This document shows, piece by piece, positions 12,653 through 17,984 of a DNA stretch of 64,000 bases; position 1 is the stretch's first letter, and each line of letters opens with the position of its first letter. The position numbers and the translations under genes are program-made. Source of the stretch: Stylophora pistillata (taxonomy: Eukaryota); NCBI RefSeq assembly GCF_002571385.2, contig NW_019217851.1, forward strand, positions 599,898 through 663,897, given 5' to 3'. The notes under the pieces are model-generated. The model ran no database searches. It was not told where the DNA came from and worked only from the letters and a program-made list of their open reading frames with translations.

Positions 12653-15600
12653 ATGAAGCCTTTTCAAGCACTCGGTTGCAGAGTACTGCTCTTGTTTTTA
12701 ATGCTAAGCGAAGGTGTAGAGTGTCGTCCAATACAAGGTACGAAACGTGGGGCGTTGGAAGCTCTATTGCTAAGTATCGTTCGTGGCGGATTAATGGCCC
12801 ATTTTAGAGACTTTTATTAACTGAAACCAAACCACCTGGCTTGTCGAAATAAGCCAACATTTTTCACACTCTAAAGAAATATGGACGGGCTGACTGACTC
12901 AATTTTTTTAAAATCACAATTAATTCATGACATTACTGAGGTGATGCTAACGCCCTGATTGATCGGCAACGTCTAAACTTTTTCCTCATGTACCGCACAT
13001 AACAGGGCAAGCTGTGCGCGCGCTAGTTAACAAATCGACAGGGGTTTTGCGTGGTCTGTGCACTTATCTTGACAGGGGTCAAAACGTTGTGGACTCCTTT
13101 TTTACCACGATGTCGACGTCCAAAATTCCGAGCCACCCATGTTTGAGAGCTGATAAAGACAATGGCTGACACTTTGACGTGTGCAGCGTTGTCTGCACTC
13201 TTATCAGCAACGGCAATTTGGCCAATCAGATCGAGAAACTACTGCCAATTGTGGTAAAACTCATCTTTTTTTTTGCTTTACAAAGCAATAGAGATCACAG
13301 GCCAACAAAGTATTGGTTCAGCGTTTTTCGATATGGGCGAGGTCATTTTCTCCTGATCCTAAACAAAATAAAGGTCGTGAAATCATAGGATTCCTATGTT
13401 CCAAACATAGTAAGAGTAGTGATGTACTATTTTCATTTAAGTTTTCCTCCACCGGTTTTCGGTTTTCCAATCATTTTGCATTTTGAACTAACAAAGAAGA
13501 GAAAACATGAATTGCAACCCACTCGTCGAATAAAAAGTTTCTAATACAACAATGCTAAGAAAAAGAAGAAAGGTGAGAAATTTTTTACGTGAGAATTTTA
13601 GCAACATTTAATTTGCATTTTCTCTTGATTTATCAATCAAATTCATGAAAACAGTGCCAAACGACATTGAATTGTCCGCCGTTGATGGCAGAAGAGATGT
13701 TGTAGAGAAATACTTTTCCCCAGGTGGAGTGCCGGTTGATGTTCGTAATGCTGGGTCAAAAGATATCCAAAAGGGACCCCATGGCTTGGTCAAAAATACC
13801 CTGTTGAAAGGAGGTGACGAATATTTAGAAGTCAAAGAAGTTGAATTCCCTCATTCCTCAAGTAAGGGTAAGTGGGCATCAACTTGTCCGGCAATCAAAC
13901 TAATTACAACTGTAATAATTTCAATATATCAACAAAGTTGAAATGGTAAATTGGCCACCGTTTCGATTATAAAAGCTGACGTTTCGAGCGTTAGCCCTTC
14001 GAAGGGCTAACACTCGAAACGTCAGCTTTTATAATCGTAACGGTGGCCAATTTACCATTTCAACTTTGTTGATATATTGAAATTATTTCGTTACCCCCAC
14101 CGACGCAGCCCCAAACAGTTTCTTTAGAAAACTACCAGCCTTAATTGCAACTGTCTACGATAGTTTGCCGAAAAAACCACTGATGACAAAGCAATCTGTG
14201 AAGAGTTGGAAAAATCAGTTGCACCGTCAACGAGTCGCGCACACAATATCTAAAGCGAAAGGGTATCTTTCTCTCATCATTGTGGTGCTGTTTATCAGAA
14301 GGCTTTAGGCTATTGGGCAGGACTTCGCACTTCGGATAACCATCGTAACGAGGAATGTTTTCTCTGGTTTTCCGATCATGATTTTGTTACCATTAACACT
14401 GACAATTTACTATCGTAGGAGACCATCAAAACATCCCGTCAGCAGACGCGCGCCAGAATGCGGCGCACCCTACTCCTACTGAAAGACTGAAGATTGAAAT
14501 TATCGAGAGACCAGAATTACTAAAAGTGACGGTCGACAAGACACCCCATAAGGAACAATCACGGACAAATAAAGAGAAAAAGGAATCGAGAGAACCACAA
14601 AGGGAAAGTGAGAGTCAATCAATAACAAGCTCAGGCCTTCTCATTGTGGACGAAGGTATGTTCCTGGTCTCAAGTGAATAAATCCACCAATAAACTTGAA
14701 TAAATGCTACGTACAAAATGGCTTTATCGTTAGAAAGCTGAATTCAAACTGCGAATGATTATCAATATCCCGTTTTTCATGCTTTTAATGTTTTTTGCCT
14801 TATAAATCATGATATCAAATTCGGTTTACAGTCAGCCGGCGGTGTGCTATCGTCTCGAATGATTGGAAATTGATACAAATCAGTATTTCTTTTTGGGGAG
14901 TAAAGGCTGGCCGCATTTGTTTCTCACATTAACTTCAGCACGCGACAACTCCAAGCGTACAGCTGACAATGAACGGATTTATGAAGTGCTAAATGGAAGC
15001 CGTGTTTGAAGATGGTTTTTCAGATTACAATGCTCCAAAAATAATCACGGTTTTTGAAAAAAAGGTCTCACGTACCTGTTTAGAGTGAAAGGTCCTGAGC
15101 GTCATGACTTAATGATATGATATTCTCTGCGGAGCTGGCGTTAGCAAGATTTTTAACACCATTCTTTTTATGTACCATGTTTAAAACGGTTAACTTTGAT
15201 TCTGGCACGGTAAATGCAAAACATTGGCTGTATTGAATTCAAGTGAATACACAAGGTAAAGTGCTTTAAACTGGCTTAACTATAGCACCGTTCAATGTTA
15301 CCTCTCTTGATATCATCTATGTATTTATCAAATAATTTGGATATATCAACAAAGTTGAAATGGTAAATTGGCCGTCGTAACGATTACAAAAGCTGACGTT
15401 TCGATCGTTAGCCCTTCGTCGGAGCCTTATTCATATGTATTTATCAGATTGGGATGAAAACTATCCTGTGGATGACGAGGATTGGAGCAGTGAAAGTGCA
15501 CATGATGTTGGTTCAGCTTCAACTTCAGTCTCAGGCTCAGGTTCAGTCCCAGGCTCAGGTTCAGGCTCAGGCTCAGGTTCAGGTTCAGGTTCAGGTTCAG

Positions 15601-17984
15601 GTTCAGGTCCATTTAATGTTGGTTTCCTTCCTCGATGGAAGCTCGTATCAAAGAATCGCGTCCATCACGAAGCGAAGTCTAAGCATTTGGCCGCCATCGA
15701 TTATGGCGGGATTGGACTCTTATGGTTGTTGGCAGTTATTGCTTTAGTCCTGGCGGTTGTTTCCATCGTTTTTGTTCGCAGGTAAAAACGAGTTAGCCAC
15801 AGTAACATTAACTTAGCTTGGACCAGCTACTCCTGTCACTTAATCCTTTAACCACTCATGTAACATTTATAGTAAACATCGTTTGATTGGTCAATTCTGT
15901 TTCTAAGCGGATCCCTTATCAGGTTTCATAGTTCACCACTAAATTTTCTCTGATTCTTACTGGTTTAAATTGATCACGTGACATGCTAGTGTTCTTCCGT
16001 GGAGAGACACTATCAGTCCAAAGTGCTCGTCCGCGGAAAATGCCCGGATGGATAGTACTCATCCGTGAAAAATTTTGAATGATTTGACGACCGCAAAGTT
16101 AGACAGATGGGAAAAACTGTGACTTTTCAATTCTGACAGGTATAATGCATTATTTAGCCAATGTACGTTTGCGAACTATTGACATTTGTGACAGGCTGTG
16201 CGTATGAATAGATATTTGATCGACCTGCATTTAGTGACTTTTGACTTTTTTTCGACTGGCGCGTGGAAGAAAACTTAATGGTGAACAATAAAGACAATAG
16301 AGTGTTTATGTTTCGGCGCTATCCGTCTGATAGTTGCCCCTTGGAGATTTGATGCTCTTAAAACTAGCATATTTGTTTTAAACACGAAGGCGCGCTATAT
16401 AAGGAACTCTTCCCTGGGAAGACCTAGGCTCATTTGTCACTCACCGTTGACGTGTGCGGTTCAAATTTAAATGCTGGTATACGAACAAAAGGAGCTAATG
16501 AGATATCTATTGTTTACTTCCACCAACATGGTGGCATGAGGTAACGTGCGAACCACCTACTTCGATCTCAAATTTACTGCCACAAATAAAGACAGTTTCC
16601 AATGGAGAAAGGAAATACAAATCTCAAAATTTCTTGTATTGTGATGAAGATGTAAAACAATTTTGAGGAATGCGCCTGCTGTTCACTGCTTTGGAGTAGC
16701 TGTAGCTCAAGCTGACTTGACTCTAAGAGTTCTACATCACACGACGGTTGATTGAAAAATGGTCCAGTGGGGCCTAAGGCTCCTTTTATAGCGCGCCTTC
16801 GTGTTTAAGAACATCGAATTCCCGCGGGGTAACTATCAGCCAATAGTTCCTCTACAGAAACACTCTATTGTTTAAATAGAGCCGCGTATAACTAGTTGTA
16901 TCATAAAAGTAATAGAACTCATTTTCCGGACTATATAACGTGATAAAACCACTTGGGGTGTTGGGAGAACACATCAGAAAGCTTAATTTGGGATTCCCCA
17001 AAAGGAACAAGTTTTTAACCAACACATAAACAGTACGATTAAACAATTACTAATAAAAGAAACCATGGCAAACATGTTGGCAGATCTTGCTGCACACCAG
17101 ATGTTGGCCCGCCTGAATCTATCAAGGTTGAAAAGAGTGGCAAAGTATTTTCTTCCAACCAATCTGCCCTAAAAGAGGCCCGAGTTAAAGTTGGCAAACA
17201 AAAATCCCGAGAAAACCGGAAAGTTCTCAGAACTCTAAGCACAGGAGTAGGCACCGAGAAGGATGAACTGGCCATAGCTTGCTCCATCATTTCTCCCAGC
17301 ATTGACGCCAGGAAAAAGAACTCTGAGGCTTTACATACTAGAGCGGTAAGTACATAGACCCTAAAAGAAGAGTCTCTCATAGTCTTTCATGGTTATGAAG
17401 AGTACCTGGATTACTGAAAGGAAAGCCACATTTTGCAGGTCGTCTCAGTAGCCAGCCGGAAAGTATGTAGTCTCGGGACTTCTTTAAAGCAATGTCGTTT
17501 GAGTACTTTTTTAGTTAGCACCATAGAAAAAAGATGGATAGTTAGGCAGTCTTGTCATTAACATATCTTAGTGGTCCAAGCTGACATCGTTTGTGTCGGC
17601 CTCATAAGCCCCGCGTATTGGCGATACAAGGCTTTCCTCATGTTTATTACAAAACTCGGATATGTTCATAGACCGCCTGCTGTTTTATTCCTAGCCTTAT
17701 CCCTTCCCTTCTAACATACCCTAGCGAGTTCGTGCATTTGTTTGTATTTTTTAATTCGAAAACGTGATGCCAACAAGCTGTCATATTTTACATAGTGTGT
17801 TCGCGCTGCCACTTCCCAGTCTCGACGTAAAAGCACGTTCGAGGAAGACCTTAAGATGGCACGATATGAATTTGCGAATGCTCCTGCCAAGTTTGCTCAG
17901 CTTGTGCGTTCTGCAGGAGATGAGCTGAAAGAATCGACTGAACAAGACTCGAACAGCGAAGCTGTCAAGTCTGACTCACAGTAA
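12653..17984 (+). CDS. Uncharacterised type I membrane protein with a (Ser-Gly)n tract, candidate cell-surface proteoglycan; exons 12653-12737, 13655-13867, 14419-14655, 15448-15781, 17084-17345, 17796-17984; ~439 aa
   Basis: Six open exons join through GT-AG with matching phases (1,1,1,2,0), totalling 1320 nt. Signal peptide [24 protein letters not shown]; acidic [13 protein letters not shown] followed by SGSG..(SG)9; TM helix [25 protein letters not shown]; juxtamembrane CC; cytoplasmic RRKST. The exon-5 acceptor has a weak pyrimidine tract. Confidence 0.72.
13914..14141. mobile_element. Penelope-derived insertion forming a 174-bp spacerless palindrome (13914-14087) plus tail
   Basis: Near-perfect inverted repeat centred at 14000/14001 (...GCCCTTC|GAAGGGC...). 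It is flanked by a 13-bp direct repeat, TAATTACAACTGT (13901-13913) and TAATTGCAACTGT (14142-14154). Confidence 0.75.
15330..15428 (-). mobile_element. Penelope terminal-repeat fragment with a degenerate hammerhead motif
   Basis: The reverse strand reads GCTCCGACGAAGGGCTAACGATCGAAACGTCAGC...GGCCAATTTACCATTTCAACTTTGTTGATATA. Confidence 0.65.
16382..16804. mobile_element. MITE with TTAA target-site duplication, nested in an older inverted-repeat element (~16290-16880)
   Basis: TIRs ACACGAAGGCGCGCTATA / TATAGCGCGCCTTCGTGT, with TTAA at 16378-16381 and 16805-16808. The host arms ACAATAGAGTGTTT...TGATAGTTGCCCC and GGGGTAACTATCA...AAACACTCTATTGT lie outside. Confidence 0.75.

Follow-up and report, generated by a model that had tools for sequence, protein, structure and literature searches.

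A candidate single-pass membrane proteoglycan of stony corals encoded by a gene with six coding exons in Stylophora pistillata

Introduction

Cnidarians make heparan and chondroitin sulfate and, to our knowledge, few of their core proteins have been described besides homologs of vertebrate ones. In betaglycan, NG2/CSPG4 and phosphacan, a single membrane helix is combined with a disordered stalk that bears one to a few acidic Ser-Gly sites and with folded, mostly disulfide-bonded ectodomain modules; endoglycan and neuroglycan C are further single-pass proteoglycans of comparable layout. Syndecans (PF01034) have a tail of about 30 aa with a C1 region after the helix and a PDZ-type end, the C2 motif EFYA, which is variable in cnidarians. 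As described in PMC1464127, they are type I proteins with a divergent unstructured ectodomain carrying acid-flanked Ser-Gly, one helix and a conserved cytoplasmic part. Serglycin (PF04360), which has a consecutive Ser-Gly run, is a granule protein and is classed in PMC4859157 as the only intracellular proteoglycan.

The gene described here is located in a window of 64,000 nucleotides from Stylophora pistillata (contig NW_019217851.1, positions 599,898 to 663,897), to which all coordinates refer. It had originally been predicted to code for a serglycin-like proteoglycan of a new architecture. In our best reading the protein is neither a syndecan nor a serglycin but a glycosaminoglycan (GAG) carrier organised like a syndecan, with a phospho-regulated tail of its own. 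If this is true, it represents a new, coral-restricted core-protein family with a cytoplasmic module that has no known relative.

Gene structure and transcript

The six coding exons (the coding part of the sixth being 17796-17984) have joint phases 1,1,1,2,0, are separated by GT-AG introns in all five cases and, upon translation of the spliced sequence, yield 439 open codons without internal stop. All five joints occur within a single 1943-nt contig of the polyA RNA run X3. The hidden six-exon gene of the original prediction, which had named RNA reads across the five junctions as a check, is thus confirmed as real and spliced. The features are as follows.

12653..12737, plus strand: exon 1, coding part; ATG in CCACC-ATG context; predicted signal peptide; joint 1 in X3
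13655..13867, plus strand: exon 2; 71 codons, phase 1-1; joints 1 and 2 in X3
14419..14655, plus strand: exon 3, ectodomain; RNA contigs; conserved motif aa 120-142 (14478-14546), extra Ser-Gly at aa 171
15448..15781, plus strand: exon 4; acidic patch, Ser-Gly tract, basic juxtamembrane stretch, membrane helix; RNA contigs
15531..15608, plus strand: Ser-Gly tract aa 207-232; 2+9 dipeptides, GGYTCA hexamer array
15702..15776, plus strand: predicted single transmembrane helix aa 264-288; hydropathy, ortholog identity, AlphaFold
17084..17345, plus strand: exon 5; juxtamembrane Cys-Cys (17088-17093), first half of the conserved cytoplasmic core; RNA contigs
17796..17985, plus strand: exon 6; second half of the tail, RxxS/T-F site (17823-17840), stop 17982-17984, donor GT 17986
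20626..21300, plus strand: predicted non-coding last exon (3' UTR), from the acceptor, AATAAA and the X3 leftover; end approximate

When four further RNA runs were compared over 14300-18100, joint 3 was found in two and joints 4 and 5 in three of them. Four contigs from the RNA runs reach 150-856 nt beyond the stop codon, and a GT donor is found at 17986, one base after it, which indicates at least one further, non-coding exon. After 17986, 676 nt of the X3 contig are left over. Within 19100-30000 a single strong acceptor begins with G. It places the exon start at 20626, from which AATAAA is 658 nt away, and the last exon is accordingly only predicted, as given above. The gene is single-copy: three protein queries revealed no paralog in this genome, the one match with E 2.9, on another contig, being discounted as weak.

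Protein layout

The spliced product is a predicted type I membrane protein, as supported by hydropathy and ortholog conservation. A signal peptide is predicted for aa 1-24, with the cut likely past Val-Glu-Cys and ahead of Arg-Pro, a call made solely from hydropathy, Kozak context and ortholog alignment; the first eight residues of this region are identical to the Oculina ortholog, with 15/23 identity overall. Hydropathy reveals one hydrophobic helix at about 264-288, and both signal peptide and helix are also in agreement with ortholog conservation. In the Oculina ortholog the helix is modelled with a pLDDT of 70-91, while the ectodomain is predicted to be unstructured (pLDDT mostly <50; pTM of the full-length model 0.19).

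Most elements of the predicted layout were recovered: residues 25-263 (239 aa) are free of Cys, as expected for an ectodomain of about 240 aa, and the single helix is followed by a Cys292-Cys293 juxtamembrane pair and a tail of about 150 aa with RRKST at 387-391. The 2+9 Ser-Gly dipeptides are located at 207, 209 and 215-231, and an extra one at aa 171 precedes an acidic patch at 177-198. The patch had been described as lying directly before the Ser-Gly run; it is present, but ends eight neutral residues short of Ser207, and acidic residues are absent within 10 positions of the nine-unit run.

Comparison with known families

In Pfam, the six exons, five long orthologs and 25 alignment members had no more than scattered sub-threshold matches, and all PDB sequence searches gave E above 1. 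In the ESM Atlas, exon 4 had no usable match and the Oculina protein matched unnamed clusters at 0.88 at best. A full-text literature search by six ortholog identifiers gave 0 papers, and no description of this family was among the papers listed by topic. That the protein belongs to no described family agrees with the Pfam, PDB and fold searches and with the annotation of its orthologs as 'uncharacterized'.

It might nevertheless belong, strongly diverged, to a known single-pass family (syndecan, TMEM119, TMEM154, AJAP1, equatorin), with which it shares the coarse layout and, at 0.80-0.82, language-model neighbours. We consider this very improbable. The atlas neighbours are mutually inconsistent, neither the five long orthologs nor the 25 alignment members have a Pfam match over the cut-off, and a profile comparison with the syndecan of this very genome gave an hhalign probability of 1.8%, confined to the hydrophobic helix.

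An acid-flanked Ser-Gly in an unstructured ectodomain is present as in syndecans, but there is neither a C1 region nor a PDZ-type end, and the tail is about 150 aa long. PF01034 matched neither exon 4 nor exon 5 nor the long orthologs, while the same HMM found two other loci over the cut-off, on other contigs of this genome. These two true syndecans end in EAFV and EVFV, and the claim that the gene product is not a syndecan stands. It differs from betaglycan, NG2/CSPG4 and phosphacan by an ectodomain without Cys and without predicted fold.

The consecutive Ser-Gly run is shared with serglycin by this species only, and the membrane helix is a difference; PF04360 has no match anywhere in the genome, nor among the exons of this gene. 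Since the run is absent from all nine ortholog sequences, the likeness to serglycin is one of convergent slippage, and the proposed serglycin-like new architecture is not supported. It is the tail which is new, while the overall layout is already known from syndecan-type proteoglycans.

Orthologs in stony corals

Five RefSeq proteins, all annotated as 'uncharacterized', are orthologs: XP_078342221 (Oculina patagonica), XP_029192685 (Acropora millepora), XP_067025843 (A. muricata), XP_015777336 (A. digitifera) and XP_068760123 (Montipora capricornis). They resemble the Stylophora gene in part order, exon ends and the conserved tail, but have one Ser-Gly site in place of the tract. The Acropora proteins (342 aa) lack the exon 2 segment, of which Oculina has a counterpart. 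According to the ortholog alignment, the conserved parts are the cytoplasmic tail, the membrane helix (10-17 of 25 residues identical), the juxtamembrane Cys and a short motif at aa 120-142, the only one conserved in the ectodomain (10-15 of 23 identical in the five orthologs).

A HMMER search with exon 5 gave eight matches, seven of them to genuine homolog clusters; the remaining one, a titin-like protein from a fish (P0007), was discarded because its score is the sum of seven weak repeat matches. For P0029 the match is confined to exon 6. Word-based protein searches gave none among 16 candidates for exon 6 and none among 76 for the second half of exon 4. As judged from these matches, the family is unnamed and its named members have so far been found only in stony corals, in agreement with the predicted lineage specificity.

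Cytoplasmic tail

The tail core (317-420) is 51-72% identical among the orthologs, while their C-termini are not conserved. RxxS/T-F is kept in all five aligned orthologs, as is at least one juxtamembrane Cys. Helices with a pLDDT of 91-95 over 50 residues are predicted for the tail (pTM of the model 0.36). With this model, Foldseek gave no matches and the best VIA-align hit (Z 4.8) was to generic helices. Such blank or generic results do not demonstrate a new fold. A suspected likeness to stathmin or IQ motifs found no backing in the Pfam matches.

Ser-Gly site

The original prediction had made its case depend on conservation of the Ser-Gly tract in orthologs. A tandem run occurs in none of the nine ortholog sequences, which cover three genera, but all nine keep one Ser-Gly that has 6-8 acidic residues in its vicinity and precedes the membrane helix by 51-54 residues, while the surrounding region has only 5-11 of 55 identities. 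Of shuffled ectodomains of four orthologs, 0.2-0.5% have such an acidic Ser-Gly at that distance, the distance window having been picked after the data had been seen, and 1-3% have one anywhere. The nine orthologs are related and are thus worth two or three lineages.

The long run of Stylophora is a local repeat expansion, as judged from the sequences, whereas other corals have the single site. It has only 0-1 acidic residues within 10 positions, and all 12 Ser codons of the tract region are TCA, versus 11 of 45 in the rest of the gene. The genome has such hexamer arrays at nine places, with 31 matches versus 33 for a reversed control, so that expansion needs no selection; the run of 11 Ser-Gly has likely grown from the ancestral site by hexamer slippage. 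Poor acid flanking of the long run and the ordinariness of such arrays count against the proteoglycan view. In two RNA runs the tract is 24 nt shorter, while run X1 shows the full length. Collapse of the repeat during assembly is an unlikely cause of this difference, because the longest perfect period-6 stretch has 36 nt, while 37 would be needed to loop 31-letter words, and because X1 gives the full length.

These data bear on a different function, that of a membrane adaptor or receptor which works via its tail and the ectodomain motif, the Ser-Gly run being a product of neutral slippage within a flexible stalk, with no chain that matters. Strong conservation of the tail next to low identity in the Ser-Gly region (9-20%) speaks for it, as do the uniform TCA codons, the two tract lengths and the ordinary occurrence of similar arrays. 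Against it speaks that all nine ortholog sequences have a single acidic Ser-Gly whose distance from the membrane stays fixed while its surroundings diverge, and we regard it as doubtful, although it deserves serious attention. If no chain is attached, this would be one more membrane protein, lineage-restricted and uncharacterized, in which a repeat has slipped.

Expression

Expression in adult tissue is low. In adult regenerating fragments the Acropora ortholog reaches 0.08-0.26 TPM, and the listed markers of calicoblasts, gland cells and symbiocytes do not include it; no ortholog bears the name of a skeletal organic matrix protein (USOMP, SAARP, SAP). The suggested roles in mucus, skeletal matrix and symbiosis thus found no support. 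Full contigs of the gene were obtained from four other RNA runs, while exon depth was zero in each of three raw-read runs, which is weak evidence because the reads examined amount to just 2-6% of each run and only the species label is shared. In run X16, exons and introns are covered alike at low depth, without joints.

A granule or gamete membrane protein might show such a pattern. Its task would be to tether GAG either within secretory vesicles (granules of acrosome-like, cortical or cnidocyte type) or at the gamete or larval surface, serving serglycin-like packing or recognition. Near-silence in adult Acropora, zero depth in some runs but full contigs in others, a fast-changing ectodomain on a fixed tail and a weak language-model neighbour in an acrosome-factor cluster (0.82, below the reliable range of the tool) are in its favour. 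However, the RNA runs carry no tissue or stage record and a low bulk level suits any rare cell type, so that we rate this as improbable.

Glycosaminoglycan attachment and proposed function

It counts against GAG attachment that an acidic Ser-Gly is a permissive motif and that many such sites go unused. The genome encodes xylosyltransferase, GT64 exostosin and chondroitin GalNAc-transferase domains (PF12529, PF09258, PF05679, all over cut-offs), and a putative GAG acceptor in a genome with these enzymes is plausible. GAG sites require unstructured surroundings, according to PMC10570366, and the predicted disorder of the ectodomain fits this. The experimentally defined chondroitin sequon, as given in PMC13405426, has an acidic cluster upstream of Ser-Gly, which is matched here. 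On these grounds the protein likely carries sulfated sugar chains.

With slightly better than even confidence, we propose a single-pass cell-surface proteoglycan of stony corals, with GAG on the acid-flanked Ser-Gly and a helical tail under kinase control. Signal peptide and membrane helix would impose type I topology, and Golgi xylosyltransferase would prime the Ser, so that the disordered outer part may carry GAG chains at this site. The chain would here more likely be chondroitin, because the run is followed by basic rather than acidic residues, although tandem Ser-Gly would favour heparan. The juxtamembrane Cys may be palmitoylated, and the conserved, predicted helical tail would couple the protein to a partner, an AGC/CaMK-type kinase acting at RxxS/T-F to switch binding of the basic helices. 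Use of the gene may be limited to a certain stage or cell type. Surface location is assumed in this proposal; a granule or organelle membrane is also possible.

In this species, hexamer slippage at the ancestral site may have increased the number of possible chains, originally one or two, to as many as eleven. An extended version of the proposal, which we offer as a long shot, is that stony corals have membrane proteoglycans of their own, unrelated to syndecans and with a kinase-switched helical tail, in which a coding microsatellite sets the chain number (about 11 versus 7 sites here, one in other corals), so that the glycan load on the surface of a gamete, larval or rare recognition cell type would vary heritably between colonies. 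Together, the one site in other corals and the two tract lengths here form a natural series in which an effect of chain number is directly testable.

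Gene model and transcript evidence

The candidate is a real gene. Its six coding exons, which sum to 439 open codons and are separated by five GT-AG introns, are as follows (all plus strand):

12653-12737, exon 1
13655-13867, exon 2
14419-14655, exon 3
15448-15781, exon 4
17084-17345, exon 5
17796-17984, exon 6

The five junctions of the original prediction are borne out, as all of them were found in a single 1943-nt contig from polyA RNA run X3. When 14300-18100 was compared with four further runs from four studies (X1, X10, X13, X16), X1 and X13 both contained joint 3, the contigs of X1, X10 and X13 spanned joints 4 and 5, and X16 contained no joint in this region. 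Three raw-read RNA runs with the same species label showed no depth over the exons; the run labels denote coral. Because the X3 contig begins within exon 1, support for the start codon comes from its Kozak context and from the Oculina patagonica ortholog, with which the first eight residues are identical.

In all four spliced contigs the transcript extends 150-856 nt beyond the stop codon. A GT donor is located one base 3' of the stop codon, and the sole strong fitting acceptor within 19100-30000 is at 20626, followed 658 nt downstream by AATAAA, which is close to the 676 nt of the X3 contig left over past the coding part. A non-coding seventh exon starting at 20626, predicted from these splice signals, is therefore likely.

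Protein anatomy

The spliced protein has the following features (residue numbers):

to about Cys24, predicted signal peptide
239 residues, ectodomain without Cys
177-198, acidic patch
171, 207, 209, 215-231, Ser-Gly dipeptides
between Ser-Gly tract and helix, basic stretch
264-288, single hydrophobic helix
292-293, juxtamembrane Cys pair

The tail is basic. An acidic patch directly before the Ser-Gly dipeptides had been claimed: the patch is present, but eight residues lie between it and the tract's first Ser-Gly, and there are no acidic residues within ten positions of the nine-unit run.

AlphaFold did not model the Oculina protein as a compact fold (pTM 0.19, with pLDDT below 50 over most of the ectodomain), and for the tail alone it gave helices (pLDDT 91-95 over 50 residues, pTM 0.36). 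Foldseek found no match to the tail, the matches by VIA-align (Z no higher than 4.8) were all to generic helices, and searches of Pfam, PDB and the ESM Atlas gave no usable match for exons or orthologs.

A coral family conserved in its tail

The gene is single-copy in the genome searched (three protein queries). A HMMER search of 1.84 billion representatives with exon 5 gave 8 matches, 7 of them genuine, and querying with the Montipora protein gave 4 matches among 3501 candidates. From the exon 5 match clusters and the latter search, long orthologs were obtained for Oculina patagonica, three Acropora species and Montipora capricornis; those from A. cervicornis are partial. All are named uncharacterized or hypothetical; the proposed homology check led to no described family. 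A full-text search found no publication naming six ortholog identifiers, and topic searches found no description of the family (subscription journals are mostly outside the scope of both). Every named genuine match is from a stony coral, and we consider this a putative stony-coral family that is undescribed; it may extend to anemones and other cnidarians, since its range rests on one exon and word-based searches.

The exon 5 tree places the protein beside Oculina and clusters without a name, separate from an Acropora-Montipora group (100/99). Single-exon database entries stop where exons 4 and 5 stop, and thus these boundaries are conserved. Exon 2, a module of phase 1-1, aligns with a segment of the Oculina protein, and the Acropora proteins lack an equivalent. 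Identity to the five orthologs was:

317-420, tail core, 53-75 of 104
264-288, membrane helix, 10-17 of 25
120-142, ectodomain motif, 10-15 of 23
acidic and Ser-Gly region, 5-11 of 55

The kinase-type site RxxS/T-F-x-E-D and one juxtamembrane Cys are kept in all five. The conserved novelty is the orphan cytoplasmic tail.

One acidic Ser-Gly site and a probably young tract

The Ser-Gly tract (2+9 dipeptides), which had aroused the initial interest, is not conserved: none of nine ortholog sequences has a tandem run. Each of the nine carries a single Ser-Gly 51-54 residues N-terminal of the helix, with 6-8 acidic residues in its vicinity. In shuffled ectodomains of four orthologs such a site occurred at that distance in 0.2-0.5% and anywhere in 1-3% of cases, the sequences being from three genera and the distance window having been picked after seeing the data.

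The tract itself is a hexamer array with TCA in 12 of 12 Ser codons, versus 11 of 45 in the rest of the gene. No second copy of the exact array was found, but five-unit TCN-GGN arrays are present at 9 sites in the genome, with a frequency equal to a reversed control (31 versus 33 matches). At 15446-15617, an X1 contig has the 172 nt of the window, and X3 and X13 contigs from two studies have 148 nt. As the missing 24 nt lie in a stretch skipped as repeat by the comparison tool, we infer that the X3/X13 tract has four units fewer; the short form may reflect allelic variation or come from a sister lineage. The tract is likely a young repeat; it is species-specific and may be neutral.

A longer mixed-codon TCY-GGY array (about 12 units) is found elsewhere, at C166:195444-195514 (plus); it could encode another Ser-Gly run or, on the opposite strand, a Pro-Glu run.

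A putative glycosaminoglycan carrier

We lean slightly towards a single-pass glycosaminoglycan carrier, in which acid-flanked Ser-Gly would be primed by xylosyltransferase, the ancestral single site would have been multiplied, the juxtamembrane Cys would be palmitoylated and a helical tail would be switched by a kinase; we infer every step after the topology. The kinase-type site and the palmitoylation motif are our presumed readings. The carrier reading is drawn from the literature on Ser-Gly sites and chains and from enzyme domains in the genome, which has those of xylosyltransferase, exostosin and chondroitin transferase. Xylosyltransferases act on Ser-Gly of unstructured regions; chondroitin is the default chain, and acidic residues after the site direct towards heparan (PMC10570366), which is also favoured by repeated Ser-Gly (PMC4598785). 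An upstream acidic cluster belongs to a tested chondroitin sequon (PMC13405426, preprint), and cnidarians have both chain types (PMC5050403). A predicted proteoglycan identity is credible.

If so, the protein would work like a syndecan. However, as originally predicted, it is not one: it has neither C1 nor C2 region (PMC1464127), it is not matched by PF01034, and the genome has two true syndecan-domain genes at other loci. Nor is it a serglycin (no PF04360 match in the genome; PMC4859157). The syndecan-domain genes are:

C673 1447-2157, minus, one long open frame with acidic Ser-Gly sites
C18 856-1662, plus, one long open frame that lacks Ser-Gly as far as shown

Cnidarians had been reported to have single syndecans in a survey of 2006 (PMC1464127).

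A role in mucus or skeletal matrix had also been suggested. In supplementary tables of an Acropora regeneration study (PMC12019164), two gene rows whose best match is the A. millepora ortholog show 0.08-0.26 and 0-0.08 TPM over 14 time points, and neither row appears in file 4, which has 11 sheets of cell-type markers. These data argue against a mucus or skeletal protein of high abundance and favour expression restricted to a stage or cell type. No ortholog bears the name of a listed skeletal protein (PMC6824150).

Other features in the window

2936-4399, plus, 487-codon open frame with Rab-GAP TBC domain
9868-10950, plus, 360-codon open frame with trypsin-like peptidase domain, no obvious signal peptide
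13908-14093, 15330-15426, 16300-16900, MITE-like high-copy intronic repeats
18244-18903, plus, 219-codon open frame
19848-19994, plus, Cys-rich stretch resembling a lone exon, flanked by an N gap on its 5' side and bearing splice signals
32842-33969, minus, exons containing low-complexity stretches rich in Ala/Thr and in Gln
45230-46474, 14 identical 89-nt units in tandem, reaching an N gap

The intronic repeats have read depths of hundreds to thousands in RNA runs; intron 2 contains a 186-nt palindrome that is almost perfect, and introns 3 and 4 carry pieces related to it. The Cys-rich stretch, which would fall within the predicted last intron, weakly resembles the Cys-rich part of ADAMTS proteins (Pfam Adt-1, E 0.03, under cut-off). 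The frame at 18244-18903 has no Pfam match and, together with 20078-20330, presumably resembles the terminal 3' part of a LINE-type element; two copies of the frame's end flank the gap at 19174-19816, possibly through an assembly duplication. The last exon at 32842-33969 has no Pfam match, and the C-terminal segment may be polybromo-1-like.
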